From: a virus | DNA length: 64,000 nucleotides | Direction: 5' to 3' (one strand) | IMG/VR virus record: IMGVR_UViG_3300025127_000009 | Coordinates: 32,001 to 96,000 of that record | Shown here: piece by piece, positions 29,901 to 62,628 of the stretch | Position numbering within the stretch: the first letter of the stretch is position 1 | Layout: each line of letters starts with the position of its first letter | Made by a program: the position numbers and the translations under genes | The notes under the pieces: generated by a model | Databases searched by the model: none | Seen by the model: only the letters and a program-made list of their open reading frames with translations | Told to the model about the DNA's origin: nothing

Positions 29901-32644
29901 GCTTGGCCTTCCAACAAGGAACAAAGTTCATACGGAGTTAATACAAGACTTATTTTATCTAAAAGAGTAGCAACGGAATCTTCTGATTCACTGTTAAGAA
30001 CTGAGGGTGGTAATCCCATATTTTTCAAAGTGTCTGCTGTCTTTTCGTATAGACTTGCTTTTTCTTCAGCGTTAGCAAAAGGATTGTCTTCATTCTTTTT
30101 GTTGATATCAGATAAGGCCATCGCACCAAATTTTAGTAAATCAGCACAATCAGGTAACCTTATAGAATCTAAAATCATTTTAATAAGTGCGCACAAAAAT
30201 GCCATAATCATATCTGCTATCAGAATTTTTATTTGAGGTATTATAAACTGTAATGGGTCAAAAGATGGCATCTTTGGAAGTTTTGGTAGTTTCCAATTAA
30301 ACTCAAAATTCCAAGGACCTATCATTGGAACACACTTTAAAAAGTCACAAAGTATATAAGACATGTTCCATCTATTTAAAAACTGATTCCACATCTCTTC
30401 TATGTCGCAAGGAATCTTGCCAAAATCAGGAACTAAATCTGCTGTCACAATTGATCCGCCTTTTTGTTCGAAAAAAGTAGATTCCATAAGTGAATTTACG
30501 TTTCCTTCAAGCAACTTTGCAGCCTCTTCAAATTCCTGAGCGGCTGTTAGTAAACTTCCAGGATCAAAATTTATTTTTAAATCAACTAGAGGTTCTGTCT
30601 TTTGATTAAAACTAAAAGATATTATTGGCCAATGATATTTGGCAAAAAACTCAACCGCAGGAGAAGATATTAATTCAACACAAGGATTAACAGTAGCCAC
30701 CTCGCTTGCCATCTCATCAAGCGATACTAAATAGCCCATAATTGTCGGTGAAGTAAAAGGCTCCTCACTATTAAAACTTGGTATACCAGTTGTTAGTTCT
30801 TCGACCTCTCCAGATGAATGTAGATAGTTTATTTTAATAATTCGATATCCAACAATGGTGCCGAAGGTTGGACCCTGTTTTGGTCGCTCATCTAGGTTTG
30901 GAGACAAGTCTTCGTTTTCTGGTATTGATGCTGGAATATTTTTTCTAACCGGTGCAAAGAATATCTCTATTTTGTCACTTGAAAGAGGGCTTACAAGTAT
31001 AGAATAACCATTTGCTGCCATAAAACCACCAAGCGCTACTTGAACTGCTGCGAGTCTGTCTGCTTCGCTTTCAGGGTTAAAGTACGGTGTAATTGCATCT
31101 TTAGGCTTTTTGAAAGGAGACGCTTTTTCTACTCTAGGTTTATTTTTTAGTCTGAATTCTTTAATATCTGGCGCGAATGCCCTTATCTTTTCTGAAACAG
31201 CCAGTATGTTTGGTACAAAATTGCTTAACTTGTACGTAACCCTCACTGGATTTGAAAGCGCCAATTGCATTCTTTTTGATGCCATATCTGCTGCTTGGGA
31301 TGCTGCCCAGGCATCGTTACCAGGACCACCAAAAAACCCTCCTCTTCCAGATGTTGCGTCGGCCCAAGCATTTTTTAATGCATTTTTTCCAGCCTGTTCC
31401 AGTTTTCTCTTTTGACCTTTAGCCCACTTATCAACAGAGTCTTTAAATCTTCCAGCACCATCCCTCAAAAAGTCGCTTGTAAAAGGTTTTTTTAAGTCAT
31501 TAACTATAAAATCTTTGGCCTTGTTGAACCCATCTTCTGCCTCGTCTAAAGCATTACCAATTGCTTCATAGGTTGCTGGGTCTGCTAAGTTTACAGTGCC
31601 TCCAAGACGCCCTCTTTTGCCACCCCTTATTAAATCAAAAAGATCTCTTCTTATTGAAATCTTAATAGAATAAGTTGAACTAGGCCTAAAAGTTGGGTAC
31701 ATGATTTCTGTTACTGATGCAAATATCGGGGTAGCACCTGGCGTAAGATCTTGTCCAAAGAGAACATCAATCTTTTCTCCGTTTAACTGTTCGTTTAAAT
31801 CCATCCTATCCACCGTAAAGGTGAATCTCTGATTTTGCCTAAACCTATCTGATCTGTTTTGATATTGAACTATTTTTTCATACTGTTTTCTTTCATAATC
31901 TCCATCGTCACCTATTAGTTCATATAAGGCGTCCAGCCCCTCTGTACGTGGCGCTCCATCAACAACCCAAGTTGTATCTTTGCCATAAAAATCAAAAACA
32001 TTCAACACAGCCTCGCGAAACAATCCGCCCAACTGACTTTTTATATGAGAATCATCAGTCTGTGTCCCTTGTGGTCTTCTTACTTTTGTCACATAAGCGT
32101 ATTCCACAAACCTTCCTACAATCTTTGGAGGTTCTTGTTTTTCACCGGTCGTTTCAAAAGCCCGGTGCGCCATATTTAATTCTGTTTCTGCTAGTTTTTG
32201 AAACTCTGGAGATTCTAACAATTGCTTTGCTGCTTGCATGAATCCATTATCTAACATAACAAGGTAAGTTGGCTCTCCAAATTGTCCCTGTTCTGTAATA
32301 AACTCTCCTGGTGCGTCTATTCTAAGGTCTCCAATTCTTGCGCCACCAAGAGGATTTTCAAAACCTTCAATTGTCCACCCTGCTTTTTCGTAAATTTCGT
32401 CTCTATGATTCTGTTGCCATCTTCGCAGTGCTGTTTCAGTTATAATATCAAAAGTGGAATTAACCTCAGTAATAGAGCCAAGGCCCAAATAATACTTGAG
32501 TATTTGAATTATTAACCCACTAGGGCCTCTTTTCGGGTCGATTACCTGTTCTCTTCTGATTGGCAACTCAAAAGTAAATTCGGTGGCCTGTGTGCCTCCT
32601 TCAAAATTGTAATCATAAACTATAACGTATTTTTTCTTACTCAT
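23981..32644 (-). CDS. Giant (2887 aa) baseplate-region protein with a putative N-terminal peptidoglycan-binding domain
   Basis: GLIIQILKYYLG...NSTFDIITETALRRWQQ resembles PG_binding_1. The remainder is largely helical/unknown. It lies between the spike and gp25-like genes. Confidence 0.65.
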   Translation of the reverse strand: MSKKKYVIVYDYNFEGGTQATEFTFELPIRREQVIDPKRGPSGLIIQILKYYLGLGSITEVNSTFDIITETALRRWQQNHRDEIYEKAGWTIEGFENPLGGARIGDLRIDAPGEFITEQGQFGEPTYLVMLDNGFMQAAKQLLESPEFQKLAETELNMAHRAFETTGEKQEPPKIVGRFVEYAYVTKVRRPQGTQTDDSHIKSQLGGLFREAVLNVFDFYGKDTTWVVDGAPRTEGLDALYELIGDDGDYERKQYEKIVQYQNRSDRFRQNQRFTFTVDRMDLNEQLNGEKIDVLFGQDLTPGATPIFASVTEIMYPTFRPSSTYSIKISIRRDLFDLIRGGKRGRLGGTVNLADPATYEAIGNALDEAEDGFNKAKDFIVNDLKKPFTSDFLRDGAGRFKDSVDKWAKGQKRKLEQAGKNALKNAWADATSGRGGFFGGPGNDAWAASQAADMASKRMQLALSNPVRVTYKLSNFVPNILAVSEKIRAFAPDIKEFRLKNKPRVEKASPFKKPKDAITPYFNPESEADRLAAVQVALGGFMAANGYSILVSPLSSDKIEIFFAPVRKNIPASIPENEDLSPNLDERPKQGPTFGTIVGYRIIKINYLHSSGEVEELTTGIPSFNSEEPFTSPTIMGYLVSLDEMASEVATVNPCVELISSPAVEFFAKYHWPIISFSFNQKTEPLVDLKINFDPGSLLTAAQEFEEAAKLLEGNVNSLMESTFFEQKGGSIVTADLVPDFGKIPCDIEEMWNQFLNRWNMSYILCDFLKCVPMIGPWNFEFNWKLPKLPKMPSFDPLQFIIPQIKILIADMIMAFLCALIKMILDSIRLPDCADLLKFGAMALSDINKKNEDNPFANAEEKASLYEKTADTLKNMGLPPSVLNSESEDSVATLLDKISLVLTPYELCSLLEGQASEEVLVVVLNVIQATSSSLASVLSTREDVFMFFQTLGQVVDPNMCARIKELDDVIVANDLCPPEDGTTGGGFGDSQGGGQGGERDIRKLLDDVGASPEEIAAELKKAAERRDIMKDLARTGDLSGLIPGTNYNDLKDAGLPGPYNNPMHDRLVKMSVETLIDNIKSYFDVEIAAFPNLLMSRSTKLVQPGEPRFNALDYTMYVFYLKQVDNLQQDPPLTARKIHKLKPCNVEYLDENDNQIDADPSTLAEANDFFDEMGIPENDRQYMRFYVTKAEDKEEDAEGNEFYPDVLIPSNEDEGELQFEKVQEFGELIEKYVIGYVQKYQIQDPDIMAKLKSIVKLDQTTITRKFPGSADNVRELHVRLMTEPVRGEPTRIESTSNVPARYSVGYSELPFKRGFKAKDCYRFSYSNIPSVFRSNRSYFNRVYSEDLKPEYQQFRKESLDVRSTIHQHKLLRPGGFAEILIEKYKSLGDESSQNNSFDTYNDHGSPTNTNIRPAIQGYIANPDQTLVDDAFSQFRTINGLEAINNKVLTGELAEQLLESRLSNNPLYSSVSDSINFSISQIIKQSKYFNYDELLQLKDDLTRLYFVSDVDGVPCYILNKKAIDFEKMVQEFLQGYKTEVAKIKHDPVDRDFNVNGPYEDAMISGLFKVYVTMAGLEIMLKGIFMFSSFGAERMFDQRFVMDYLVDTISNDFKNALVERKTRNQIFSILKRLTNIDDNDEALESMVLRNLDMKKMVDFVDRVFENDSSSYKEKFYNDLAKNAKHIPSATNYPKVVVQRRRENLLSESLRGVFEDYGNLPRGRTVVDDRNFGDFIYGAGDVAEVPASLMLPNLRDKFRFQGFDEETINKKINSGHFWIEKFYRIGNFEQFSSIYNEVKNYTESSTLQQYTYRKIPSLDTTGANYYSEYLSSEDLINLLYGQPNRASDEELVDSALATADRNFAEYEFIEHVFLSLLTQYFAAIETTGLVDSLKQPEPEVGLGIPPAVVPPPEPTKTVPHKESMWQSEHPNLHQIRDENCLAYQIMYDLGIAARYENSNRERLVMTGHGDPGKLTTGATNVVLAPVASTSDDPEAPMSARRLTNDDGSVRATRITTNETHWQRPYLRGVSRVRDRNSFTIEETVYANDGVTVIAEEGEISQSPYDTPREMSEGGRTSFTEFDSFYRAGSVTKEQLYDRAYRRIQPAHSTYFAYKNRYYNPSDPETSDWESRLPEFQRSTTWPRQPSSIFPENSAIQKYNTYAGRNFGDNIKDYYWFAKAFTENSNLSQEARSLPLRRKIEIFIDCLLEFAELKTYWPINDPSWQTSTGRMGLPGNRVIFRKSPDRIRLSDRDMDERTEKVHNILRFASLSVEYPNDFWPAHNRAAWWRWKTNGKISFGGYGTPKYVETDFAQKNVLDYYISRVFIPSVIPRQIITENRNAPGVLNQPTINSNYLVEDEYIVSRRQRIVNHLEENLQIGYRLMFGHKVKREEQTGFDATKINTIKPSQIYGDLFPAVEENQTLRFDPVNSGLGLASNRNVFTKKRCFLGHVDPEPVYSGGSLNESSIFYKNALKITKAHTSKIADETSFMMAPVTTEIMDNLVYSIPIDEIAKPIECFSDLLRKRTGKNTINTLSPRDAVTDNFFENIENFFNRGLFEEYEDSLLEDLLSMEVKPKREDQDEASYVKCWKIKDTKKQENNTPEEIMKPHRLMFDFLFPLDRYAAMHLMQNVLIFDSQAQTQELLTATKLFIVQNIVLMNDIVASTGFNLPKNAMATMNDNMGGGEPGIGDIWKMIWKQLAKMIPQAAFAAIRQVAETADPGYKDMKEQYMEDPCSMKSGLRPGLLGVPMRSGFSPKYKGNKLNNGFGIRKGQACKTYVPATMFPLDIIFSIALSPWPPFINFFKTAKNMITPAKHFINLFPLPGVPIPLDKSERYGQFMGPPGLLALSVGELSGEEHARLKRENGCEDQPCPEEKPEEPPEEPMGMCEDLE

Positions 32645-34488: not shown

Positions 34489-35961
34489 TTACTTTTTAGT
34501 TTTGTTAATATTAACAAACGGTCTCCACTTGCCACCAACAGACTGAAAATCATAATCATCTGTTGGGTATTGATCTTTGACCTGGGTTGAAATTAACCTT
34601 TCTGGATCGTCACTACCAAGAGGATTACTCAATCCTAAGCCCAATCTAGCAAAATCGAAATTATATCTCAAATCTACTCTGTTTCTCTGTACCATCCAGT
34701 GATGAATTATATGTTGGTTGTCCATAGGTATTCCTCTTCTGGAACATATGTCGCCTATCAAAGAGCCCAGTGCAGAGTATTGAGCGTTTGTATACATGCC
34801 TTCACCACCATATTTTCTATTTCCAGAGCGTGTATCCATAGCAGCCTGAAGGTCTATACCTATAGACCGCATGTTTATACTATTAGGATTCCAGGGCTGA
34901 TCGTTGTCTCCTGCTGCATGACTTACAGAATACGCTTCGGGAGTAAGCGCGTACACTGTTCCTTCCTTTGTTACATAATAGTGGCTACCTATATTAGATC
35001 TCCCTATAGATTTTCTACTTTGATCGACAAAAGAACGAACTGCGCTTTCACCAGATCTCCAACCATAACCTCCGTCATGTAACACAATTAAATCATATGA
35101 AAATCGAGCGGGCTTTTTCATTCGTCTGGCTGTTTGTCCATAATAAGTCATGTCAGAATTTAAAAAGACACCATCATCCAACTCTCCGTTATCTCCACCA
35201 GTAATAGAGGGAAAGTTACCCATTCTTTGAACCAACCCACCAGGTGAGCCTGCGCCACCAGCACCAAAACCGCCGAGTCCGCCAAAGCCACCTCCGCGTC
35301 CAACGGCTCCGATACCAAGACCACCAAGACCGCCGCCTGGTGCACCACTAGAGCCCGGAGAATGCGGAGGGGGAAAAGCAGCCTTTGCGCCAACCGCCGC
35401 TGCGCTAGGCTTAGTGCTATTAGATGCTGATGAATTTTTTGCATCGTCTGCAAAACTTTCTATGAAGCCAAAATTTGTACCTTTAAATTTAACTCTAGCA
35501 ACTTGACCAGTGCGATAAATGTTAGCCGCAGAAACAGAACCTTGATCAAATATTTCGTAAAATCTACTGAGCATTGTAAAAGGTACCATTTCAGGATCTA
35601 ACATAGACAAAGATCCTCCTTCCGCTACCCCATAATGAAGAACCACTGCCACATTTTCTAAATTTCTTGCCTCTTTTCGAATATCGCCCTGCGCTGACAT
35701 GATGATTCCTGCTATTTTTGGATCTGGGATGTTGTGAATACCCTCAAAAGCAAATGATTTAAATATAAGTGCCCTTCTCTCTCCTGATATACCATCGTCT
35801 TCTCTTTGGCCTTTTGCCATCTCGCTGGTCAAAGATGTAAGCGCTGATATAGGCTTTTCATTATCATCAACTACTATTGAATTAAAATTTAATTTTGAAT
35901 CATTAGAATCAATGTCAAAGAATCTTCTTACAACTCTGTCTGATGGCTTTTCTGCTGGCAT
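34489..35961 (-). CDS. N-acetylmuramoyl-L-alanine amidase (Amidase_2) fused via a Gly-rich linker to a possible OB-fold-like N-terminal domain
   Basis: LIVLHDGG...SHYYVTKEGTVY...HAAG...NMRSIGID...AQYSALGSLI...IIHHWMV, a T7-lysozyme/PGRP-type amidase pattern; GGGLGGLGIG...GGAGSPGG linker. Confidence 0.85.
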   Translation of the reverse strand: MPAEKPSDRVVRRFFDIDSNDSKLNFNSIVVDDNEKPISALTSLTSEMAKGQREDDGISGERRALIFKSFAFEGIHNIPDPKIAGIIMSAQGDIRKEARNLENVAVVLHYGVAEGGSLSMLDPEMVPFTMLSRFYEIFDQGSVSAANIYRTGQVARVKFKGTNFGFIESFADDAKNSSASNSTKPSAAAVGAKAAFPPPHSPGSSGAPGGGLGGLGIGAVGRGGGFGGLGGFGAGGAGSPGGLVQRMGNFPSITGGDNGELDDGVFLNSDMTYYGQTARRMKKPARFSYDLIVLHDGGYGWRSGESAVRSFVDQSRKSIGRSNIGSHYYVTKEGTVYALTPEAYSVSHAAGDNDQPWNPNSINMRSIGIDLQAAMDTRSGNRKYGGEGMYTNAQYSALGSLIGDICSRRGIPMDNQHIIHHWMVQRNRVDLRYNFDFARLGLGLSNPLGSDDPERLISTQVKDQYPTDDYDFQSVGGKWRPFVNINKTKK

Positions 35962-37758: not shown

Positions 37759-38304
37759 TTAGTCCTCCGGGTGTGTATGTTTAAAAATAAAACTTATTAG
37801 TTTTCTAATAGATTCTTCAACACTTTCTTCATTTGTGTTAATTATAAGATCCGCATTAGATGGTTTTTCATATGGATCTGATATACCTGTAAAATTACGT
37901 ATTTTATTCGGATCATCATCTGGCAATAGAGCCCTTTTGTATAAACCTTTAGGGTCGCGTCCCACAAGAGTGTCTAGGTCACAATCTACAAAAACTGTTT
38001 TTGCCAACGAATTGTTCTCTAGAACTTCTTTTCTAATATCATCATAGGGGTTGATGGCAGACATGATGCAAATAACATTATTTCTAGAAAGTACTTTACC
38101 AACAAATGAAAGTCTTCTGATATTTGTGTTTCGATCTTCTTTTGAAAAACCTAAATCTTTACACAAACCCTCTCTGTACTCATCGCCGTCTATAACCTCT
38201 ACGTTATAACCCATCTCTTTGAGTGTTCTTTGCACTCCAAAACCAATAGTTGATTTTCCTGCTCCACTTAAACCAGTCATTTGAATAAAAATTCCTTTCA
38301 TCAC
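37759..38304 (-). CDS. cysC: Adenylyl-sulfate (APS) kinase
   Basis: TGLSGAGKSTI P-loop, IDGD, LGFSKEDRNTNIRR, SAINPY, GLYKRA, FTGISDPYEKP, the full CysC motif set. Confidence 0.95.
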   Translation of the reverse strand: MMKGIFIQMTGLSGAGKSTIGFGVQRTLKEMGYNVEVIDGDEYREGLCKDLGFSKEDRNTNIRRLSFVGKVLSRNNVICIMSAINPYDDIRKEVLENNSLAKTVFVDCDLDTLVGRDPKGLYKRALLPDDDPNKIRNFTGISDPYEKPSNADLIINTNEESVEESIRKLISFIFKHTHPED

Positions 38305-38708
38305 ACAGACTCCATTAAATGTTTTCTAACTAGATCATGAATGGAAGGATCGACATTTTCTTTCCAGGCGTCACTGTTTTCAACAATCTGATTTCTTATA
38401 CTAGTTGCTGAAATGAAGCCGACATTTTGAGGTGGTACGTGTTCATTAATTTCATATCCGACGCCACGTCCGTAGTTCACACTTTCAATATCAGGAATTC
38501 TAATTACCTGCACTTGCTCAGTATTGCCATAAACTTGCTGTATCATATTGATTGTCTGGTCTGTACTAAATGGATTTTTTGCATCAGGGGGAATATCTCT
38601 AACTGCTATTAACACTGGTATCTCTTTTGCTAACTTTTGATCTATCAACCACTTATGACCATTGTGAAAGGGTTGCCAGCGTCCTATAAACAATGCTTTT
38701 TTAACCAT
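38301..38708 (-). CDS. Small HIGH-superfamily (cytidylyltransferase-like) nucleotidyltransferase; candidate minimal ATP sulfurylase
   Basis: FIGRWQPFHNGH (HxGH), YGRGVGY and ISATSIR motifs; overlaps the cysC start. Confidence 0.8.
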   Translation of the reverse strand: MVKKALFIGRWQPFHNGHKWLIDQKLAKEIPVLIAVRDIPPDAKNPFSTDQTINMIQQVYGNTEQVQVIRIPDIESVNYGRGVGYEINEHVPPQNVGFISATSIRNQIVENSDAWKENVDPSIHDLVRKHLMESV

Positions 38709-39417
38709 TTGCTACTTCCTCCTTCATGTATCCTAAGGTTTTAAGGCAAGATTCAAATGCCGGTATTTCAAATTCATCACATATTTCTTTATAAGCATTC
38801 AAGTCTTTTCCTATAGACTGTGTACCTAATTTTCTTTTGCCATAATTTTGCTTTGCAGACTCATCACCTGCTCTGGCCAAAACAGAAACATTCCATTCAA
38901 AAACCCAATCTTCAACATAATCGGGGTAATTTTTAAAACTGTGTTCTGATTCTAAACCAAATCTTTGCTCTATTTCGTTCTGTATTCTGCCCGGATATTT
39001 AATTAGATCTTCATACCTAACCTCTAAATCTATTACATCTTTAAACATTCCTCTTTGCCTAATCGATTCAATCCAGCGACGAGGTTTTACCCATTTACCA
39101 TCAGACAAAACAACATCTCTGCCATCTCGTACAACATTTATAATTGCTACACTTTCTTTTTTAATTGTATTGTGTTGCTCTTCAAAATTAGGCATCAAAA
39201 CATTACTTAACAAGGCAGGCGGGTGCCTTTTGCCGACGACGAAAGGTTTGTCGCTCTTATATTTAATAAAATCTTCAAAAGACAATTCATGCCCATCAAA
39301 TCCTTTCTTATAAAGAACATCCATATTCTTAAATGCATAAAACATTCTCAATAATAGTGTTGTACCAGACTTTGCACAGCCTGTAATAAAAATTTTCTTA
39401 CTCATTATATCTCCCAA
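38701..39417 (-). CDS. Sulfotransferase (PAPS-dependent)
   Basis: 5'-PSB loop ITGCAKSGTTLL, 3'-PB motif VRDGRDVVLS, and VRYEDL. Confidence 0.85.
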   Translation of the reverse strand: MGDIMSKKIFITGCAKSGTTLLLRMFYAFKNMDVLYKKGFDGHELSFEDFIKYKSDKPFVVGKRHPPALLSNVLMPNFEEQHNTIKKESVAIINVVRDGRDVVLSDGKWVKPRRWIESIRQRGMFKDVIDLEVRYEDLIKYPGRIQNEIEQRFGLESEHSFKNYPDYVEDWVFEWNVSVLARAGDESAKQNYGKRKLGTQSIGKDLNAYKEICDEFEIPAFESCLKTLGYMKEEVANG

Positions 39418-40028
39418 GTTTTGTATTCTGGATCTTTTGTTTTGTTATTATCATGCATGCGATAACGATAAAATGGAATCTTCAAGTGATCTATCTTGTA
39501 ATCTTGTCCCAATCTTTTTCTTAACTCTTCTTCTTCTCTGTGTCTCATCTTTTCATTGTACCCACCTGATGCTGTGAATACATCCTTGCGATACATTATA
39601 CCACATGAAATGTTTTGTTTTTCTGCATACCTTCTTTCTAAAACGTTCTCGAAGTCATCAACCATCAGATAGTCGCAAGAAACGCAGAATACATCATGAT
39701 TCGCTTCTAGATAAGTTTTCATTATATAACACATATCTGCGTTAACATAGTCATCAGCATCAACTCTAATAAAAAATTGACCTCTTGCGTGTTGTATACC
39801 AACATTACTCGCTACAGCAATTCCTGAATTTTTAGATGTGCTAACTAGTTTAATTTGATCTTTAAATGGATCCATTATCTCAATTGAATTGTCTGTGCTG
39901 CAATCATCTACAACGATCACTTCATGCTTAACTATTCTCTGATTTAAACAACTTCGTATTGCTCTAGGCACATACCTACTGTAATTGTAATTTGTTATTA
40001 TAATTGAAACATCAGGATTAGAACTCAC
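39405..40028 (-). CDS. Glycosyltransferase family 2
   Basis: VSIIITNYNY...VIVVDDCSTD...NSGIAVASNVGI...RVDADD (GT-A, DxD). Confidence 0.92.
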   Translation of the reverse strand: MSSNPDVSIIITNYNYSRYVPRAIRSCLNQRIVKHEVIVVDDCSTDNSIEIMDPFKDQIKLVSTSKNSGIAVASNVGIQHARGQFFIRVDADDYVNADMCYIMKTYLEANHDVFCVSCDYLMVDDFENVLERRYAEKQNISCGIMYRKDVFTASGGYNEKMRHREEEELRKRLGQDYKIDHLKIPFYRYRMHDNNKTKDPEYKTWEI

Positions 40029-40731
40029 TGTTTTTCTCCAGTATTTCCAAGTTCTTAATTAATCTAACATATTCTTGAAGACTATCTTTGTCAAACGAGG
40101 CTATGTGCCCACCTTCTGTACCAGATTGAGCATATATGTTATTCGAAAAATGTTTTTCTAAATATATCGCTCCCCTCATATATGCACGTACAGATGCAGC
40201 AATACCCAAACTGTGGTCGCTGTATCCGGTATATGCCCCTTCTTTGAAGAAGGGCATTTTTCTAAGTTTTTCATCATCTAGATAAGTTGGATACTTTGAC
40301 ACACAAAAAAGGTAATCAATATTACCATCCTTGCCGTAAGGAAATTGTCCAAATTCGTGCATACCTGTTGAAATCAACGTTGGCTTATTTTCTGCTAAGA
40401 TAAGTTCTGAAAGTTCTCTATCAAACTTTGATGTTCTGCTAGCAATTTTATGCGTTTCGACATTGAAGTCTTGCAGCCACTCAAGCCTTTCTTTATCAAA
40501 TACAGATGCCATAAACTCTATGCCGATTAAACTACAGTAGTTTGATAACTCCAAAGCATCATTGTACGATATGTCTCTATATTTTTTATTCTTTACACCT
40601 AACAATTTTTCAGAATCCATCAACTGTACTTTTACAGCGTGCGCCCCTGATGTGAACGCATTCAAAGTCATTCTTTTTAATTCTTGTAAACTTCCGAAAT
40701 GCTGGTTGCACAAATCAACTATTATTTTCAT
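40018..40731 (-). CDS. neuB: NeuB/SpsE-family nonulosonic acid synthase (no C-terminal SAF domain)
   Basis: NQHFG, AHAVKVQ, ASVFD, KIAS, ISTGM, CVSKYPT, GYSDHSLG, EKHF motifs. Confidence 0.9.
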   Translation of the reverse strand: MKIIVDLCNQHFGSLQELKRMTLNAFTSGAHAVKVQLMDSEKLLGVKNKKYRDISYNDALELSNYCSLIGIEFMASVFDKERLEWLQDFNVETHKIASRTSKFDRELSELILAENKPTLISTGMHEFGQFPYGKDGNIDYLFCVSKYPTYLDDEKLRKMPFFKEGAYTGYSDHSLGIAASVRAYMRGAIYLEKHFSNNIYAQSGTEGGHIASFDKDSLQEYVRLIKNLEILEKNSEF

Positions 40732-41413
40732 TTAAAAACCTTTTTATTTTATCTTTACATGTAAGATTGATTTCTTTCATTATATCAGAATTCATATCTT
40801 TTGTTTGGAAAAGTTTACCTCGATGATTCAACCTCTTTCTATCCACATCATTATTGATGATGCTTTGCAAGTTATCAATCAACATCACAAAACCGAGTTG
40901 ACATGTTTTAAAAAATAACTTATCAGGTGTATCTGTCTCTACGACTTTAACTGTATCTTGGTCTATTATGTCCCCACCGTCAATAGATGAATCAATATAA
41001 TGCAATGTTGTTCCAATTTTGTCAAAATTTTCTTCATAAATTGCCCAATACGAACTATCAACTCCACGATAGTGTTGAACTAACCCAGTGTGTATGTTTA
41101 CACACCCATATTCAGGAATACTATAAATTTCTTTTGGTAAAAGTGGCGCACCAAAAATAAAACCAACTTTTGGTTTTTTTCTTCTCAATGAAGTTAAAAC
41201 TAGATCATCTTTTAAATGAGATTTGTTGCACATCAGATACATAGAACCAATGCCAGACGCTCTAGGCCAAAACCTTCTTTCTTGTTTTGTAAAGTTTTTA
41301 TCGCGATTTTCTTTTGGTACAACGATAATTTGATCTATTGGCAAATGCATTCTTAAGGTGTTTAAAAATTGTATGTGTCTAGCCTGGTTGGATGTGATTG
41401 CAAAATAACTCAT
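40715..41413 (-). CDS. Formyltransferase (Formyl_trans_N; sugar N-formyltransferase-like)
   Basis: VNIHTGLVQHYRG...GTTLHYIDSSIDGGDII matches the N.H..L.P.YRG...G.T.H......D.G.I signature. Confidence 0.88.
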   Translation of the reverse strand: MSYFAITSNQARHIQFLNTLRMHLPIDQIIVVPKENRDKNFTKQERRFWPRASGIGSMYLMCNKSHLKDDLVLTSLRRKKPKVGFIFGAPLLPKEIYSIPEYGCVNIHTGLVQHYRGVDSSYWAIYEENFDKIGTTLHYIDSSIDGGDIIDQDTVKVVETDTPDKLFFKTCQLGFVMLIDNLQSIINNDVDRKRLNHRGKLFQTKDMNSDIMKEINLTCKDKIKRFLNENNS

Positions 41414-42099
41414 AGTTGCACTGGCAATGTTCCTATTCTTTTAAATGCTTCTGCCCGCTTGTTGGGGCCAATAGAATACCCTCTTACTCTGGACAGTCCA
41501 TCTAAATAAAATTCAATTCCAGGTATAATACCTAACTGAGATGAGTACACTTCCATTGCATATTCTTTTGCAGAATACTCTTTAGTTATATCTACCACAA
41601 AGTCTGGATTTGAAAAGGGATCTAATATTTCAAAACTTAGTAATTGAGATACCGCATGTGGTTCACCCAATTCCTCTAAAATATTTTCTGAGCATTTCCA
41701 AGTTGCTTCTTCTACAATCATCGAGGTGTTTTTGTGATCTCTGTGCTTGCAGATCTGGTTGTGGGTCAGTATTATGTCTGGCTTTACTTCTCTTATTTTT
41801 TTAATAACAGAATGAAATGTTTTTTTGTTGTTTGTTACTTCTTGGCAAGGTATACCAAGAGTGTGTATCTTTGAAACCCCTAGTACATGACACGCCAAAG
41901 ATGCTTCTTTCATTCTAATATCTGTAATATTTTCTCTCATATTAATATCACAACCTTGTTCTATGCCTGTGCCTCCGTCAGTCATAAAACAAACTTGAAC
42001 ATCTGATCCAGATCTTGACCACTTTGTAATTGTTCCTCCGCACCCAATTGTTTCATCATCTTGATGTGCAGCAAAAACTAAAACTTTTTTACTCAACAT
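41410..42099 (-). CDS. PIG-L/LmbE-family N-acetyl-sugar deacetylase
   Basis: VLVFAAHQDDETIGCGGTI...RMKEA...HRDH metal-binding motifs. Confidence 0.92.
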   Translation of the reverse strand: MLSKKVLVFAAHQDDETIGCGGTITKWSRSGSDVQVCFMTDGGTGIEQGCDINMRENITDIRMKEASLACHVLGVSKIHTLGIPCQEVTNNKKTFHSVIKKIREVKPDIILTHNQICKHRDHKNTSMIVEEATWKCSENILEELGEPHAVSQLLSFEILDPFSNPDFVVDITKEYSAKEYAMEVYSSQLGIIPGIEFYLDGLSRVRGYSIGPNKRAEAFKRIGTLPVQL

Positions 42100-42667
42100 T
42101 TATTCCCAAACTTTCTATTGCGTTGACATCTTCTTTTGAATGTACATCTATCAAATCGCAAACATAAGCCCCAGTCTTAACACTTAAATCTCTTTGATAA
42201 ACATACCAAGATTTCATTATTCGAAATGCTGCATTTTGCATCAGATTACCACCAACACTTATTAACTCATTTCTTTCATTTTGTAAAAAACAGTTAATTG
42301 CATCGTCCAGTATATTAGATGTAATTTGAGGTGAATTGGCTTGCAGAGAAATAACAACATCTTCTCTATCGCTTCTTTCTGATTCTTTTATAAAAGAATA
42401 ACAGTCTCTTATGGCATCCATCTTATAAACATGATCTTTAGATAAAGCAGGCGCTCTATCATGTACTTTGGCTCCATATGAGAGTGCTATTTTTTTTATC
42501 TCCAAATCTTCTGTTGAGACCCATACATCTGTTACAAACTTACTGTGTTGTGCAGCCTTTATAGCCCAAAACAACATTGGCTTACCCCATACAGGATATA
42601 TATTTTTCCTGTGAAGTCTTTTAGAACCTCCACGGGCAGGTATTATTGCGATTACTTTCATTAACAA
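42089..42667 (-). CDS. neuA: Acylneuraminate (nonulosonate) cytidylyltransferase, short form
   Basis: IAIIPARGGSKRLHRKNI, VWVSTED, LQANSP, IDVHSKED motifs. Confidence 0.88.
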   Translation of the reverse strand: MLMKVIAIIPARGGSKRLHRKNIYPVWGKPMLFWAIKAAQHSKFVTDVWVSTEDLEIKKIALSYGAKVHDRAPALSKDHVYKMDAIRDCYSFIKESERSDREDVVISLQANSPQITSNILDDAINCFLQNERNELISVGGNLMQNAAFRIMKSWYVYQRDLSVKTGAYVCDLIDVHSKEDVNAIESLGINVE

Positions 42668-42672
42668 ACCTC

Positions 42673-43389
42673 TTACTTAAAAAGGAACCCCATCACTTCT
42701 TTTGTGTTGCTTTTCTTAAGAACGAATCTTTCATTGGTGGCATCCCACTTGTTTCTCATTCTAACTATTTCCGATAAGTCTTCAGAATATTGAAACAAAT
42801 TAAACGTCTCTTCTTCGAAAAAATAAGATTCACTTGCCAAGTGAACAGACTCTTCAAAAACATTTCTTGGTCCCGGATTGTTTCCGGGCCTGTAATATAT
42901 ATCGTCAAACACAATACATCCACCTGGAGCAATAAGCCTGTAAGCGTTCTCAAAATCTTTCTTACATTGATCGTACTTGTGATTGCCATCGATGATTGTT
43001 AAATCAAAGGATGCATCTGGCATTTTTGATAATACTTCTGAAGAATCACCACAAACATAATTAACGTATTCCCCTAAATTAAATTTATTAATTAGTGATT
43101 TAGATTTTAACACAAACTCCTCGTTTATGTCAATTGTTGTAACTTTACCTTTTGCTTCAGAGTCTTCTAATGCTTTTGCCATATACAAACAACTAAACCC
43201 AGGTCCGGTACCAATATCTAAAATGTTTTTATATTTTCTATCTTTTATAATGCAGTAGATTGCTTGGGCCTCGCACACCTTAATAGACCCTTTTATGTAA
43301 TCGGGGATAGACGACACAGTATATCCCTCTTCGTACAGATCAACAAGGTCTTCTTTGTTTCTAGAAACTAGATCGTGTATATAACTCAT
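42673..43389 (-). CDS. Class I SAM-dependent methyltransferase (Methyltransf_24-like)
   Basis: ILDIGTGPGFS, TIDIN, GDSSEVL, FDLTIIDGNHKY, GGCIVFDD. Confidence 0.9.
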   Translation of the reverse strand: MSYIHDLVSRNKEDLVDLYEEGYTVSSIPDYIKGSIKVCEAQAIYCIIKDRKYKNILDIGTGPGFSCLYMAKALEDSEAKGKVTTIDINEEFVLKSKSLINKFNLGEYVNYVCGDSSEVLSKMPDASFDLTIIDGNHKYDQCKKDFENAYRLIAPGGCIVFDDIYYRPGNNPGPRNVFEESVHLASESYFFEEETFNLFQYSEDLSEIVRMRNKWDATNERFVLKKSNTKEVMGFLFK

Positions 43390-43411
43390 TTTTGCTCCCT
43401 GTTAAATTGAA

Positions 43412-44443
43412 TTATAACAGAACATTAAGTAAATTTTTAGATGAATTGGTGTGGTTATGAAGCCACTCTTCTTTTGCCTTCTCGAAAGACTGTTTTTTAG
43501 CGCCTTTTACGACTTGAATCATAGCATTCAACTTTGAAGTGTTAAAAGACGGATCCAGTGACTTAAGGTTTAAACAATAATCATAATCGTAGAGGTAAGA
43601 ATGGGTTACCCTATGTTTGTGAATTCTTCCATGTCTTTTCGCAGGTTTAATATCAAAATTAATTAAAGGAACATTATGCATTACGCATTCTTCTATCATT
43701 GTCGATCCAGAATTTACAACTAAATCACAAACCTCTAATAGTTCTTGAGTGGTATGTGGAAACCAAGAATCATCAAAAAATAATCTATTTCCATCCTCAG
43801 TTATTTTTTTTATTGTCTTTTTATCTATCGGATCTTTGCCTCTGCTTTTTATAAGAACCTGCCACCCCAGATCATTAAAGTTTTTAATTATGCTAATAGG
43901 CATATTGTGTAAATCTCTAGATTTTGGCCAAATGAACAAAACTTTTTTAGTATCTTTGTTTAGTTTATATTTTTCTAGAACCAGTTTGCTTTCTATGTCT
44001 ACGTCATATTTTGTTGTTCCAAAGTAAACATTTTTTTCAGTATTGCATTCATAGAAATCAGCGATATTTTTACTCGGCATCATAATCATATCATAAACTT
44101 GCTGATAATTAAACTTATGATAATTTAACACGAAATCAGTTTGATAAGTGGTTGTAACTTTTTTATCAACCTTGCATTGCGTTATTATATCCATACAAGA
44201 TTTCTCATTAGTAATAATATTATTTTTTACTTTTGTTAGTGAAGATATATTTTCTAAATTAACCGAATATTTTGAAATAAATTTTTCTAATTCTAAAAAG
44301 TTTTTTTCTAGCGATGGGCAGTTATACTTATTAGATTTTGCCATGTAAAACGTCGATGTTGCTCCGAGTTTCTTACCTTGTATAACTATCGGTGCAAAGT
44401 ATCTTAAGTGTGTCATTTCTCTGAGACAAAAATTCAGATCCAT
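43412..44443 (-). CDS. GT-B fold protein (TagF/capsule-polymerase-like); candidate nonulosonate transferase; probable start at 44443
   Basis: YFGTTKYD, KKVLFIWP, LLEVCDLVVNSGSTMIEECVMHNVPLI resemble the GT-B C-terminal motif; TAATG overlap with the upstream gene. Confidence 0.6.
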   Translation of the reverse strand: MDLNFCLREMTHLRYFAPIVIQGKKLGATSTFYMAKSNKYNCPSLEKNFLELEKFISKYSVNLENISSLTKVKNNIITNEKSCMDIITQCKVDKKVTTTYQTDFVLNYHKFNYQQVYDMIMMPSKNIADFYECNTEKNVYFGTTKYDVDIESKLVLEKYKLNKDTKKVLFIWPKSRDLHNMPISIIKNFNDLGWQVLIKSRGKDPIDKKTIKKITEDGNRLFFDDSWFPHTTQELLEVCDLVVNSGSTMIEECVMHNVPLINFDIKPAKRHGRIHKHRVTHSYLYDYDYCLNLKSLDPSFNTSKLNAMIQVVKGAKKQSFEKAKEEWLHNHTNSSKNLLNVLL

Positions 44444-45339
44444 TATAAATTCTCTGCCACTTCTAACACTTTTGCCATGCAACTTTGCCAAGAATATGGT
44501 TTATATTTGTTTTTAATTAAAGAAATATTAGAATTTAACAAATCTACCAATTCACTCTCACTCGAAAACACATTTTCTTCTCCGGCAAATTCTACAGCAC
44601 CACCGCCTTCACTATAAACTATAGTTGGTATACCGCACGCTACACTTTCAATTATGTGATTTGGCCCAGGATCATATCTTGTACCACTAACATAAACATC
44701 GTACTTCGACAATTCCTCTCCTAACTCTAAACCGTGAAGAGGCCTAATCATCATCGAGTTGTCCAAAGACTTTTTACAATTTCCAATATACGTAAAAGTA
44801 AACTTATCATCACTCCTTACATATTCATTTAAGAACATATAATAATCTAAACCTTTCATTGGATTGTTTGACCAATGGTGAGTAACAATATTAATTTTGT
44901 TGTTATCAATCTTCTTTCTTGGTTGAAAGTGATTTAAATCAACACCATTATAAACTACTGAATGATTTTTACAGCCCCAACCCAACGACAGGTGATGATC
45001 TTTTATCCAATTAGAAACAAAAATTGTATGATCTGATATCAAACTGCAGTTTCTAAGCATTGCATTCATGTTGTTTGTATTTTTTCTAGCATCACACTCA
45101 TTAACTCTATGCATTATCTTGACATTGGGAAATCTTTTTTTAAAATTATAAATTTCATTTATAGAAACATTTGTACTGCCATATCTTGGATCTTGAATAA
45201 AGATTAAATCTATATCATCTTCCAAGTGAGGAGTTACAGTATGACCTTTCTTTTTAAACTGATCATAAAAGGCTTTTAAGAAGAGGTTGCCTCCACCCCA
45301 CGGGCCATCTACGGGTACTCTGTTTATAAATACTTTCAT
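44443..45339 (-). CDS. Glycosyltransferase family 4-like
   Basis: GPWGGGNLF, VYNGVDLNHF, YDVYVSGTRYDPGPNHIIESVACGIPTI. Confidence 0.88.
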   Translation of the reverse strand: MKVFINRVPVDGPWGGGNLFLKAFYDQFKKKGHTVTPHLEDDIDLIFIQDPRYGSTNVSINEIYNFKKRFPNVKIMHRVNECDARKNTNNMNAMLRNCSLISDHTIFVSNWIKDHHLSLGWGCKNHSVVYNGVDLNHFQPRKKIDNNKINIVTHHWSNNPMKGLDYYMFLNEYVRSDDKFTFTYIGNCKKSLDNSMMIRPLHGLELGEELSKYDVYVSGTRYDPGPNHIIESVACGIPTIVYSEGGGAVEFAGEENVFSSESELVDLLNSNISLIKNKYKPYSWQSCMAKVLEVAENL

Positions 45340-46250
45340 TACATTTTTGATAAAACTGTTACAAATTCACTAAAACCTTGCGGTATGTGAATTTTTTTAA
45401 CGTTCTCTAGAGCCACTTTTGTATCAGTGGCACCACTATCTATATTACCGGGTTTAAATATAGATTTTTCACTTAATATTAAGCCTGCAGCACCAACATC
45501 TGTAGATAATATTGGAACTTCTATTGTTGCACATTCAAATATCGCTTGAGGTCCACCCTCATGGCGGGAAGCGACTATATACAAGTCTAAAGAATTATAT
45601 AGTTTGTTTAAATCTTCAAATGAAGGCAACTCATAATAGTGGTATTTTATACCAACATCTTCGAGCCTATTCATAACATATTGTCTGCGCCAGCCAGCCA
45701 GTAAAACTTCAACTTTTTTTGTTTTTGAAATTTGGTAAACGGCATCACAAAATTGATCTGGCCCTTTTTCTAGTTTTGGAGATTTAAGATCTGAGCCCTC
45801 GGTGTCTCTTTGAAAGGAACCAATCAAATACACGTCTTTTTTTATATTTAATTTTTCTCTAATTTTCAACTTGTTGTTCAGATTCTTCCACAAATTTTGA
45901 TTTACCCAAAACGGCTGCGTAAAAATAGGCTTGTTTGTAATATTTTTAATTTGATCTTTTGTTTTCTCACTAGGTACGTGATACATATCAACTAAAGCAT
46001 CACGATGCAAAAATTCGTTTAACTTAAAAGAATCAAACTTTTCTGGAACTATGTGATGAATGGTGCAAAGTACTTTTTTGCTTCGCAATATTTCTAATGG
46101 TATCCGCATCCACTGCCAGGGAGCGATAATCCAAATTATATCTGCTTCTAAGGGGTTTTCAGTAGAGATGTTCGGATTATTTTCATACCACTCTTTTCTA
46201 AACCTATCTACTACCCAAGATTCTTGTGGATTGTTTAGATATACCTTCAC
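45339..46250 (-). CDS. Glycosyltransferase family 4-like
   Basis: LYNSLDLYIVASRHEGGPQAIFECATIEVPILSTDVG (E-X7-E motif). Confidence 0.88.
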   Translation of the reverse strand: MKVYLNNPQESWVVDRFRKEWYENNPNISTENPLEADIIWIIAPWQWMRIPLEILRSKKVLCTIHHIVPEKFDSFKLNEFLHRDALVDMYHVPSEKTKDQIKNITNKPIFTQPFWVNQNLWKNLNNKLKIREKLNIKKDVYLIGSFQRDTEGSDLKSPKLEKGPDQFCDAVYQISKTKKVEVLLAGWRRQYVMNRLEDVGIKYHYYELPSFEDLNKLYNSLDLYIVASRHEGGPQAIFECATIEVPILSTDVGAAGLILSEKSIFKPGNIDSGATDTKVALENVKKIHIPQGFSEFVTVLSKM

Positions 46251-46951
46251 TTTCTTAATATTACTATACCATTGTCTGTAGATTTTCTATCTTCATTGAA
46301 GAGGTGGCCATGAAAACAGACCAATTCTGCTGAATATGATGGATTATTTTGTAGTATTTCATCTACAACTTTTTTAACAGAAAATTTAGTTGGATGATAA
46401 TCATCAAATAAAATAATACCACCTTCGCGAACTAATTGATCGCATATCTGAAAATCTTCTCTGATAATATTAATGTTTTCGTGATCACCATCTATAAATG
46501 CAAGATCAATTTCACCCTCGTATTCTTGAACAATAAACGGTATTTCTGACCTATGTTTAAACGATATCTTTTCTTTTTCTTGCCCTTCCACCATTTGATA
46601 CAACTCATAATTGGAAACTTGAAATGGCTGATATGCAATTGCTTCATTCTTTTTTTGAAAGTGCGAAACTATATCAACTGTTATGATTTCTTCTATTTCC
46701 TCTTCCAGGGCAACAGAATAGCACGCTGTTCCTCTACCTGTTCCTATTTCAAAGAAAGTAGAAGCACCAATGTGATTTGCTATAGACTTAACTAGAAAAC
46801 ATTGTTCAGACCCATACGACATTTCACCGCTCTTCTTAGTCTTATCGACTCTTGTTTTCGTCAACATGCATATGCTAGTCAAAGGTTTTAAATCTTTATT
46901 CCAGTCGTAATTAATTTTTTCAAAATATTCTACTAAGTTAGTTGTTTTCAT
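46247..46951 (-). CDS. Class I SAM-dependent methyltransferase (Methyltransf_24-like)
   Basis: FEIGTGRGTA, TVDI, IDLAFIDGDH, GGIILFDDY. Confidence 0.88.
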   Translation of the reverse strand: MKTTNLVEYFEKINYDWNKDLKPLTSICMLTKTRVDKTKKSGEMSYGSEQCFLVKSIANHIGASTFFEIGTGRGTACYSVALEEEIEEIITVDIVSHFQKKNEAIAYQPFQVSNYELYQMVEGQEKEKISFKHRSEIPFIVQEYEGEIDLAFIDGDHENINIIREDFQICDQLVREGGIILFDDYHPTKFSVKKVVDEILQNNPSYSAELVCFHGHLFNEDRKSTDNGIVILRK

Positions 46952-47846
46952 GTAATCTCCCTAAAAAATCGGAATATTGTTTTGCTACAAAAGTCATATC
47001 AATATTCGAAGAATGTAAATTCTCTCTTTTGTTTTGAAAATTTAAAGCAGGAGGATTGTACAAATCTAAAGGCTTAAAATCCCAATCTTCCTCTTCGATT
47101 ATCTGCGCGTCCAAACCTGCTATCTCTTTGGTTCCCCCAGATGAGGAACATATAATTTTACATCCAGATGCCCTTGCATCAACAACAACGTTAGGACAGT
47201 GATCTAGCCAAGCCAAATGAATAAAATAATCGCTTGCTTTATATACAGATATAAGATCGTTAATGTTTAAATTTCCAATATAAAAAATTCTTTTATGCTT
47301 TAAAATTTGAGACTTATCAACATCTCCTGCAATTATTAGACCGTCCCTTTCAGCACTGTGTTCTAAAAAATAACGAATATTTTCAGACAATCTTTTGTGT
47401 GGTCTCCAACTAGATGCACAACACCATATTTTATCGTAAGTTCTTGTGAAAGAATTATTCAATGGCCTTATGTTTTTTATATATTCAAAATCTGCACCAT
47501 TTCTTATAATTTTGTAGTTATGGTGATGTCCAAAATAATTAAATATGAGATCTTTGTTAAACTGAGTTTGGAATATAACTCCTGCCGCTTCATCGTATGT
47601 TCGTTTAATTAAACTATTCTGCATATTATAATCAAACTTGTTGTTAAAATAAATTCCATCCAGTCTTTGAACTAACGGGATGTTTTCTATTTTATTGTTT
47701 CTCTGTATAAAAGACAACTGTAGATCGAAGGCTTTATCAAACCTAAAAGTATGATCTAACAATTCTAGATATCTTTTAAGTTTGTTACCAAAGTGATTTG
47801 GGCCAGAAGTTGACATAATGTTTACGTTATCTAAAAATATGTTCAC
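46938..47846 (-). CDS. Glycosyltransferase family 4-like
   Basis: SGPNHFG, IIRNGAD, KRLSENI, SDYFIHLAWLDHCPNVVVDARASGCKII. Confidence 0.88.
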   Translation of the reverse strand: MNIFLDNVNIMSTSGPNHFGNKLKRYLELLDHTFRFDKAFDLQLSFIQRNNKIENIPLVQRLDGIYFNNKFDYNMQNSLIKRTYDEAAGVIFQTQFNKDLIFNYFGHHHNYKIIRNGADFEYIKNIRPLNNSFTRTYDKIWCCASSWRPHKRLSENIRYFLEHSAERDGLIIAGDVDKSQILKHKRIFYIGNLNINDLISVYKASDYFIHLAWLDHCPNVVVDARASGCKIICSSSGGTKEIAGLDAQIIEEEDWDFKPLDLYNPPALNFQNKRENLHSSNIDMTFVAKQYSDFLGRLHENN

Positions 47847-48586
47847 AACGAAGATACCCTACCATACGGAGTTTTATTTGTTACAATCGACTCAATTCTT
47901 AATTGTTGAGCCCTGTGTGCTCTATCAACTGATATCGGATTCAATCTGTTGTAAATATACAAAACTTTGTTGATCAACGTGATTCGATCTGGGCCTGCCA
48001 TCTCCACCATCGGATACATCATAACCCTATCAAAAGTAAATTTATAAAACTCGTCATCTTCATCTATCATGTCTTTAACATTAATTTTTTCAAACAACTC
48101 TTTTTTGAATGTTCTAAGATGAGAAAAAGACCAATGTTTTTTTCTTATATTGGTGTTCCAATATTCTTCTGTTACATACTCTGGTGTTACCACTTGATAA
48201 TTATCATTTTGCATATATGACCCAACAGTTAACCAGCAATCGGTGCTGTTATACACAGAATTTAGATACGACAAAACATTGTTGTCTGCCAAATAATCAT
48301 CACCATCCAATGTTAAAATTATAGTACCATCTTTTGCTGTTGTTATGTGATCATATAAATTTTTAAGCGCTCTAACGTTTTTTTTATTTGATACTAATTT
48401 AAATTTTTTGTTTGAATTAGAAAGTATTTCTTCTACCTTCATTTGTGTATTATCTGTTGATGCATCGTTAATGTAAACAACATCAAAATTATCGTATTCT
48501 TGTTCTAATGCAGAATTAAGATTTTTTTCTACCCATTCTTCGCAGTTGTACGCTGGTATCACTATTGTAAAATGATTCGACTTCAT
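47843..48586 (-). CDS. Glycosyltransferase family 2 (probable start at 48586)
   Basis: FTIVIPAYNCEEW, VYINDASTD, LTLDGDD. Confidence 0.9.
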   Translation of the reverse strand: MKSNHFTIVIPAYNCEEWVEKNLNSALEQEYDNFDVVYINDASTDNTQMKVEEILSNSNKKFKLVSNKKNVRALKNLYDHITTAKDGTIILTLDGDDYLADNNVLSYLNSVYNSTDCWLTVGSYMQNDNYQVVTPEYVTEEYWNTNIRKKHWSFSHLRTFKKELFEKINVKDMIDEDDEFYKFTFDRVMMYPMVEMAGPDRITLINKVLYIYNRLNPISVDRAHRAQQLRIESIVTNKTPYGRVSSL

Positions 48587-48588
48587 TT

Positions 48589-52778: not shown

Positions 52779-53016
52779 TTTTTTCTTCTTTCTTTTTTGA
52801 GAAAACCCAAGTACCTTTTAGTGTAGGGTTGTTACCTGTAGTGCTGCAAAATGCATGATTTTTAATTTCAATACTGCTGATATTGTACCCTTCTTTTTTT
52901 AAAAAGTCAAGTACTTGATCGGTATCAATCGAAGCATATGGGTCTTTTGCAAACTTTCTTTCTTTTAAGGATGCGTGAACCTTAATTTCATCATTGCTAG
53001 TTTCTAACTTAAACAT
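52633..53016 (-). CDS. Hypothetical protein (3' end overlaps the nuclease gene)
   Basis: 127-aa ORF fills the gap between neighbours; its last 146 nt overlap the PD-(D/E)XK ORF. Confidence 0.55.
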   Translation of the reverse strand: MFKLETSNDEIKVHASLKERKFAKDPYASIDTDQVLDFLKKEGYNISSIEIKNHAFCSTTGNNPTLKGTWVFSKKKEEKNVKSVKSTPRRRSNANQKDKLLRNEDVDGVQPQAQTSVSGQNKKVSGK

Positions 53017-62601: not shown

Positions 62602-62628
62602 AAAATACCTAAAGGTATTTTAATTAGT
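62602..62628 (-). promoter_or_regulatory. ACTAATTA motif followed by an 8-bp hairpin (AAAATACC-TTTA-GGTATTTT) covering the putative RBS; possibly also a purA terminator
   Basis: Perfect inverted repeat at 62602-62621 in the 28-nt gap between purA and the zincin gene. Confidence 0.4.

Follow-up and report, generated by a model that had tools for sequence, protein, structure and literature searches.

The window analysed here, a 64,000-nt stretch corresponding to bases 32001-96000 of the 192,597-bp virus record IMGVR_UViG_3300025127_000009 (a marine phage, estimated to be 100% complete), carries on its minus strand, at positions 37759-39417, genes for a sulfotransferase, a 135-amino-acid (aa) nucleotidyltransferase of the HIGH superfamily (hereafter NT) and CysC, an adenosine 5'-phosphosulfate (APS) kinase. 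Judged by its genomic context, NT is a candidate sulfate adenylyltransferase, whose most likely reaction is the conversion of ATP and sulfate to APS and pyrophosphate (PPi), and which would in this way feed CysC and the phage sulfotransferase. More broadly, we favor the view that the NT family, with members of about 130 aa, constitutes a third, non-orthologous class of ATP sulfurylase, the ancestor of which was a NadM-like adenylyltransferase rather than Sat. It is part of the same reading that mini-synthases of 3'-phosphoadenosine 5'-phosphosulfate (PAPS) built on this family, either fused or encoded by two genes, are widespread among large aquatic phages, and that the family provides the only sulfate-activating enzyme of a Dadabacteria-type lineage and of some Acidobacteriota. 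We thus propose that the module is of the PAPS-synthase type, in which both the reaction and the arrangement are known but the enzyme family is new.

The first-pass annotation had described three overlapping genes, and all three open reading frames (ORFs) were confirmed on the minus strand, which holds nearly every gene of the window. The sulfotransferase gene (38701-39417) is listed from a TTG codon at 39417; its probable start is the ATG at 39405, which yields a protein of 234 aa. It is followed by the NT gene (38301-38708) and by cysC (37759-38304), the start codon of which is either GTG at 38304 or ATG at 38301. The stop of the sulfotransferase gene and the start of the NT gene share 8 nt (ATGGTTAA) and are preceded by a GGAGGA ribosome-binding site, while the NT stop and the CysC start overlap by 1 or 4 nt (GTGTGATG), and the stop of the GT2 gene that lies upstream overlaps the sulfotransferase ATG as TAATG. 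The three genes are translationally coupled. Their arrangement is far beyond chance, because the pairing of NT with an APS kinase recurs in viral and cellular loci. The lack of a recognizable Sat or CysDN, which had been noted for this region, extends to the whole phage record, in which there are no matches to PF01747 (Sat) and none to PF01507 (CysD/CysH). A single sulfotransferase is encoded in the whole phage, and since the phage has no CysH, the purpose of the PAPS would be sulfation rather than cysteine synthesis.

The two enzymes that flank NT can be assigned with standard profiles. The sulfotransferase scores 27.7 bits against Pfam Sulfotransfer_3, just above the cut-off of 27, and 20.3 bits against Sulfotransfer_1. 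PF13469 or PF00685 is found in most of its 135 homologues, one of which is named by NCBI as a 'sulfotransferase domain-containing protein', and the PAPS-binding motifs ITGCxKSGTT (5'-phosphosulfate) and RDGRD (3'-phosphate) are invariant in 31 of these homologues. Profile and motifs together indicate a PAPS-dependent sulfotransferase of the PF13469/PF00685 type; a search of PDB sequences with the protein returned no meaningful match. CysC matches Pfam APS_kinase with an E-value of 3.5e-47 and TIGR00455 with 179.5 bits (cut-off 138.7), and the columns of its P-loop, DGD and LGFS..DR..NIRR motifs are invariant among 20 relatives. It therefore appears to be an intact APS kinase, and its position next to an adenylyltransferase is that predicted for a module of the PAPS-synthase type. 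A predicted complex of CysC with NT scored 0.00 against a mark of 0.32, a result that counts neither for nor against the proposal.

NT itself belongs to no named family. Its motifs GRWQPFHNGH (residues 9-18), YGRGVGY (79-85) and ISATSIR (99-105) are present exactly as first quoted, and its Pfam match is to the generic CTP_transf_like family (23.8 bits, cut-off 21). Within NCBIfam it is nearest to the NadM-type nicotinamide mononucleotide (NMN) adenylyltransferases, albeit far under the curated cut-offs of TIGR01527 and NF002243 (46.8 against 181.2 and 52.2 against 127 bits), which the Dadabacteria-type orthologue does not reach either. The best match in the PDB is the NMN adenylyltransferase (NMNAT) of M. 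jannaschii, MJ0541 (1f9a), with a single-sequence E-value of 1.2e-5. With a profile of the NT family the E-value improves to 3e-14, and the match is confined to profile positions 8-76, that is, to the ATP-binding half. The alignment to 1f9a is interrupted at residue 75 and taken up again at residue 95; strand 3 and the ISxT helix are separated by 43 residues in MJ0541 but by 19 in NT, so that about 24 residues are missing from a segment which we take to be the bearer of the nicotinamide contacts in NadM.

The AlphaFold2 model of NT is a single domain with a mean local confidence score (pLDDT) of 92 and a predicted template-modeling score (pTM) of 0.84. Structural comparison of this model with VIA-align ranks NadM first (1f9a, Z 14.2, 28% identity over 131 residues), followed by phosphopantetheine adenylyltransferase (PPAT; 4nah, Z 13.7), NadM-Nudix (Z 12.8) and NadD (Z about 11). 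Among 39 diverse members of the family, Gly9, Arg10, His18 and Ser100 are invariant, and Pro13, His15, Gly17, Pro46, Gly80, Arg81, Gly84, Thr102, Ile104, Arg105 and Trp115 are conserved in at least 90%. NT thus appears to keep the catalytic apparatus of the superfamily, together with a family-specific arginine, Arg81, in the GRG motif. By sequence and predicted structure, NT is a trimmed NadM-like HIGH nucleotidyltransferase from a large unnamed family.

It had initially been suggested that NT is a stripped-down catalytic core of Sat, in which YGRGVGY represents a collapsed form of GRDHAGVG..Y. This origin is ruled out by the profile, alignment and fold comparisons. PF01747 finds nothing in NT at E ≤ 0.1, and an hhalign comparison of the NT family alignment with eight bacterial Sat sequences gives a probability of 4.7% (E 0.0086). 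The superposition that had been proposed as a check places NadM and PPAT closer to NT than any Sat structure: Thermus ATP sulfurylase (1v47) is matched with Z 10.6 and a root-mean-square deviation of 2.7 Å over 126 residues, the Sat-like domain of Thiobacillus denitrificans 3cr8 with Z 9.0, Aquifex Sat (2gks) with Z 8.5 and human PAPSS1 (1x6v) with Z 7.7. One distant member of the family, P0195, scores 23.8 bits against PF01747, below the cut-off of 24.3 and over the C-terminal helix only.

The active-site motifs lead to the same distinction. The Sat genes that were compared carry RNPIHRAH and IVGRDHAGVGNYYGTY, whereas NT has GRWQPFHNGH and YGRGVGY, leaving in common only HxxH, one Gly-Arg and one GVG. 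HxGH and ISxTxxR, which had been taken as pointers to Sat, are common to the whole HIGH superfamily. Sat is furthermore a protein of about 390 aa with a PUA-like N-terminal domain, in contrast to the single-domain NT, which has WQP in place of the RNP that precedes HxxH and GRG-VGY in place of GRDHAGVG, and whose origin lies nearer to NadM and PPAT. What NT does share with Sat and with the fusions of Sat to APS kinase (1v47, 2gks, 1x6v) is the HIGH/alpha-beta phosphodiesterase superfamily, with its HxxH motif and I/L-S-x-T-x-x-R helix (superposition Z 7-10.6), the genomic association with APS kinase, paired or fused and in both possible orders, and, as proposed here, the reaction. In sum, NT lies outside the family-defining profiles of both Sat (PF01747/TIGR00339) and NadM; it possesses the nucleotide-binding motifs of NadM, GRxQPFHxGH and SxTxIR, but not the full-length acceptor (NMN) half. 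Of the original suggestion that a minimal ATP sulfurylase completes the route from sulfate via APS and PAPS to a sulfated acceptor, it is thus the function that finds support, in the genomic context, while the descent from Sat does not.

A survey of linkage to CysC, likewise suggested as a check in the first-pass annotation, found this linkage in viral and cellular loci. The NT family comprises 7,713 near-length members among 90%-identity clusters (1,319 representatives at 50% identity), and matches 546 stretches in viral contigs as well as 234 loci in species-representative prokaryote genomes, the latter scanned with a 9-sequence NT alignment. Viral context was counted in the 80 best viral loci with NT relatives, which are 53-73% identical. 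In 62 of these, tblastn detects CysC on the NT strand, directly upstream, directly downstream or within about 3 kb, and when five viral records without a strong CysC match were tested with hidden Markov models (HMMs), all five proved to have an ORF of the APS-kinase family directly upstream of, or fused to, NT. An APS kinase adjoins or is fused to NT in essentially all 80 viral loci. In three loci (L039, L059 and L067, from G127, G130 and G131), the kinase ORF directly upstream of NT is of approximately 147-160 aa, covers positions 4-110 of the 152 in the HMM, and is without the C-terminal part of APS kinase. A search of the 80 loci for sulfotransferases with a strict pattern returned mainly homologues of the window's own enzyme, the pattern being too strict to be useful.

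Fusions were counted in the 59 representatives of at least 200 aa among the 150 best cluster representatives. Fusions of NT with an APS kinase account for 47 of them, 45 recognized by BLASTP to CysC and two more by Pfam. The kinase comes first in about 34 and NT in 11, and both orders were confirmed with Pfam (APS_kinase followed by NT in P0125, NT followed by APS_kinase in P0127). Fusion in both orders is a classic sign of two enzymes that act on consecutive steps. Other fusion partners occur as well: P0148 and P0138 join NT with DUF2061, a predicted membrane protein, and DUF6717, and in P0139, P0191 and P0223 (about 375 aa) NT is preceded by an unassigned N-terminal domain of about 240 aa.

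Among cultured phages, a megablast search with the 6-kb region gave no match, and the relatives found by tblastn with NT were all less than 45% identical. They comprise NadM-Nudix enzymes and fusions of a kinase with NT from phages of Xylella and Stenotrophomonas. The latter, in Xylella phage Bacata (L081, 3163-4339) and Stenotrophomonas phage DLP_6 (L082, 3593-4324), are proteins of about 246 aa that combine a weakly APS-kinase-like P-loop half with an NT half of 34-38% identity, and the Bacata gene adjoins one with a NADAR domain. The role of this branch may lie in NAD or ADP-ribose metabolism rather than with sulfate, and it was not used as support.

That NT supplies a missing APS-forming step is the weaker argument for the phage, since the host could provide APS, and it is the cellular genomes that carry the case. 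Orthologues of NT with 55-63% identity are found in metagenome-assembled genomes (MAGs) labeled as Dadabacteria or Thermodesulfobacteriota, many of them at chromosome level, and in Acidobacteriota, Bacteroidota and Nitrospirales. In genomes of the Dadabacteria type, NT stands alone in a housekeeping context, unlinked to CysC. The 30 NT genomes examined for partner genes all encode CysC and NadD, and 27 encode a CysH-type reductase, as compared with three for Sat and one for CysD. CysH from six sampled NT genomes, four of them of the Dadabacteria type, has the CC...CxxC and ECG(I/L)H motifs of Fe-S APS reductases, and sulfite reductase and CoaD were each present in all five genomes sampled. Moreover, 24 NT genomes of chromosome or near-chromosome level from the phylum of genome G006 each have one CysC and one CysH (with Fe-S motifs in the four sampled), and none of these 24 has Sat or CysD. 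Genomes of the Dadabacteria type therefore encode the other steps of assimilatory sulfate reduction but no known APS-making enzyme.

Within this phylum, a sample of 120 genomes shows NT in 78, Sat in 18 and a CysD-type protein in 15, with none of the three in the remaining 9 and two of them together in no genome. In the Sat genomes, sat adjoins cysH; the 15 CysD genomes are tiny, and five of them were verified above the TIGR02039 cut-off. Among the 9 genomes with none of the three, CysH is still seen in four fragmentary MAGs.

In four loci from Nitrospirales, NT occupies the third position of a tandem operon, behind sulfite reductase and CysH and with no kinase nearby. The third slot of such operons is usually filled by sat or cysDN. 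In one of these (L094, 2641-5112, from a Nitrospiraceae MAG), the sulfite reductase upstream of CysH and NT measures 823 aa and joins NIR_SIR domains to a HEPN-like segment and, at its C-terminus, a TusA sulfurtransferase domain. In the complete 4.5-Mb chromosome of the Pyrinomonadaceae genome G023, CysC and NT are adjacent, and Sat, CysD and CysH are all absent. As this organism is free-living, there is no host that could supply its APS. A related locus, L083, has a weakly sulfotransferase-like neighbor. In the acidobacterial order to which G023 belongs, NT is sporadic (6 of 81 genomes), which is too sparse to inform on complementarity; one of these six, G163, is an unpublished genome on which no claim rests.

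The adjacency and fusion of NT with APS kinase in both orders, the operon with sulfite reductase and CysH, the three-way complementarity with Sat and CysD, and the case of G023 all support a sulfurylase function. This genomic support is strong and partly independent. Since NadD and CoaD are already present wherever they were sought, NT replaces neither NMNAT nor PPAT in these genomes. The same observations bear on the possibility that NT is a short NadM, an NMN adenylyltransferase of NAD salvage, such that the phage would use host APS and its sulfation module would consist of CysC and the sulfotransferase only. We consider this improbable, even though NadM provides the best matches in sequence and fold, GRxQPFHxGH and NPF(S/T) are common to both, and the distant kinase-NT fusion of phage Bacata adjoins a NADAR domain. 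The distance from the NadM cut-offs, the restriction of the homology to the ATP-binding half and the shortened acceptor segment all speak against it, and it would leave unexplained the pairing with APS kinase, the Nitrospirales operon and the exclusion of NT from Sat and CysD genomes. The genomic partners of NT are, after all, APS kinase, CysH and sulfite reductase and not NAD genes, and NT coexists with NadD, despite the SxTxIR and other motifs that it shares with the NMNATs MJ0541 and M. thermautotrophicus 1ej2. In addition, a 987-aa protein of the phage (58345-61308, minus strand) contains, at residues 423-495, another HIGH nucleotidyltransferase domain that is weakly NMNAT-like; the gene for this protein adjoins that of an adenylosuccinate synthetase (62628-63632). 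This protein could be the real NAD- or nucleotide-related adenylyltransferase of the phage, and could thus serve NAD metabolism.

Several observations weigh against the assignment of NT as a sulfurylase. Its nearest relatives by sequence and fold are, as described above, NMNAT and PPAT and not Sat, the similarity to which is not significant. Furthermore, a canonical sulfurylase, CysDN or Sat, is also present in 11 of the 46 NT-bearing cellular genomes examined. Fusions of Sat with CysC occur alongside NT in G024, G027, G028 and G221, among which are the Nitrospirales genomes that have the operon of sulfite reductase, CysH and NT, while CysD-type genes accompany NT in G025, G211, G212, G213, G215, G216 and G218. 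At locus L101, an NT-CysC fusion even has cysN and cysD as its immediate, divergently oriented neighbors. In those genomes, an APS-forming NT would be redundant. The complementarity in the G006 phylum is moreover clade-structured and reflects few independent evolutionary events, so that its Fisher p of 3e-10 is an overstatement, and since many of the genomes are MAGs, the absences are provisional. The redundancy is not fatal, because dedicated second systems for sulfate activation are known, NodPQ, which serves a sulfotransferase beside the housekeeping CysDN, being the precedent, but it may leave room for a different role of NT that is linked to CysC.

One such role would be in sulfonucleotide metabolism without sulfurylase activity. 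NT might adenylylate some other small acceptor, the product of which would then be phosphorylated on its 3'-OH by a CysC-type kinase, or it might recycle a by-product of PAPS use. This would account for the persistence of NT together with CysDN or Sat, including at L101, and it has an analogy in PPAT and dephospho-CoA kinase, PPAT being as close to NT in fold as NMNAT is. Yet it would leave the genomes that lack Sat and CysD without a source of APS in spite of their CysC, Fe-S CysH and sulfite reductase, and would do the same for G023. The kinases have the scores expected of true APS kinases (1e-40 to 1e-70), CoaD is separately present, and no candidate acceptor is known. We therefore regard this explanation as unlikely.

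Still less probable is that NT has no catalytic activity and instead assists APS kinase in assembly or regulation, for which the inactive Sat-like domain in the hexameric APS kinase of Thiobacillus denitrificans (3cr8) would be a precedent. The tight pairing and fusion with APS kinase and the structural match to 3cr8 are as such a role would predict, and it would also fit the co-occurrence with CysDN or Sat. However, HxGH, GRG and ISxTxxR are invariant or nearly so in the 39 members, which would be unexpected for a scaffold, and NT is unlinked to CysC in the G006 phylum and follows CysH without a nearby kinase in Nitrospirales. A catalytic role in the formation of APS is the reading that we favor.

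The module of sulfotransferase, NT and CysC lies at the end of a co-oriented array of glycan-building genes on the minus strand (39405-51950). Pfam scans of this array identify GT2, NeuB, a formyltransferase, a PIG-L deacetylase, a CMP-sugar cytidylyltransferase, methyltransferases and several GT4/GT2 enzymes, and the array probably supplies the acceptor for sulfation. Its proximity raises the question as to whether NT is instead a small sugar-phosphate or glycerol-phosphate cytidylyl- or adenylyltransferase, of the size class of TagD and HldC, that serves the glycan island, to which its similar size and its generic CTP_transf_like match would also conform. The structures of TagD, HldC and CCT match the NT model much worse, however (Z 5.8-7.7, with only about 90-104 residues aligned), the island has a CMP-sugar cytidylyltransferase of its own, and elsewhere in phages and bacteria NT travels with APS kinase and not with glycan genes. 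It is thus hardly likely that NT belongs to this class.

If NT is an ATP sulfurylase, the phage cassette would be self-contained. NT would make APS, the adjacent APS kinase would draw the unfavorable equilibrium forward by converting APS to PAPS, and the sulfotransferase would spend the PAPS, probably on a nonulosonic-acid glycan from the upstream array. ATP would be bound by NT through HxGH, Arg10 and ISxTxxR, elements for which this role is established in HIGH enzymes. The shortened acceptor side may leave room only for a small oxyanion, and sulfate, perhaps held by Arg81 of the GRG motif and by the NPF loop, would attack the alpha-phosphate to yield APS and PPi. The reaction of ATP sulfurylase is strongly unfavorable, and the obligatory coupling of NT to APS kinase, by adjacency or by fusion, is what one would expect for this reason.

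Elsewhere in the window, two giant ORFs on the minus strand, 3225-19829 (5,534 aa) and 23981-32644 (2,887 aa), presumably encode virion or fibre proteins, and the same co-oriented block contains a 490-aa protein with an amidase domain (34489-35961). A PIN-PhoH fusion of 440 aa is encoded at 53916-55238 (minus strand), in the vicinity of genes for a PD-(D/E)XK nuclease (51954-52778) and a ClpP-like protease (56739-57371). A 223-aa ORF (53009-53680, minus strand) probably encodes a small zinc metallopeptidase; its sub-threshold matches are to the family of anthrax lethal factor N/C-terminal domains (26.9 bits, cut-off 27.4) and to the M90 metallopeptidases.

Two further systems invite comparison with the proposed module. 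CysDN fills the same slot in the pathway as that proposed for NT, and in one phylum NT, Sat and CysD are mutually exclusive. However, the fold of CysDN, a PP-loop ATP pyrophosphatase with a GTPase, is unrelated, NT has no GTPase partner, and NT and CysDN occur together in some genomes. CoaD and CoaE resemble NT and CysC in that a small HIGH adenylyltransferase precedes a P-loop kinase that acts on the 3'-OH of adenosine, and the fold of NT is near to that of PPAT. They differ in the acceptor, in the separate presence of CoaD in NT genomes, and in that the partner of NT is a true APS kinase.

In the searchable literature, from which subscription journals were largely absent so that a prior description is possible, searches for a small or third ATP sulfurylase returned nothing. 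The cysC genes of large phages have been read as auxiliary genes of assimilatory sulfate reduction, with no mention of a partner sulfurylase or adenylyltransferase (PMC10914622). In the phage described here, by contrast, the partners NT and sulfotransferase point to PAPS for sulfation.

Should NT indeed form APS, it would join Sat and CysDN as a third class of sulfate-activating enzyme, and would be much the smallest of the three. The apparent hole in the pathway of lineages in which no known sulfurylase accompanies CysC, CysH and sulfite reductase would then be closed, whereas metabolic reconstructions would currently score such lineages as unable to assimilate sulfate. The enzymatic regeneration of PAPS would also gain a useful component, in the form of a sulfurylase of 135 aa or of a PAPS synthase fusion of about 300 aa. 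For the phages themselves, cysC would be part of a self-contained supply of PAPS for sulfotransferases, and not a boost to cysteine synthesis by the host, and the targets of the phage sulfotransferase would be sulfated glycans or components of the virion or the cell surface.

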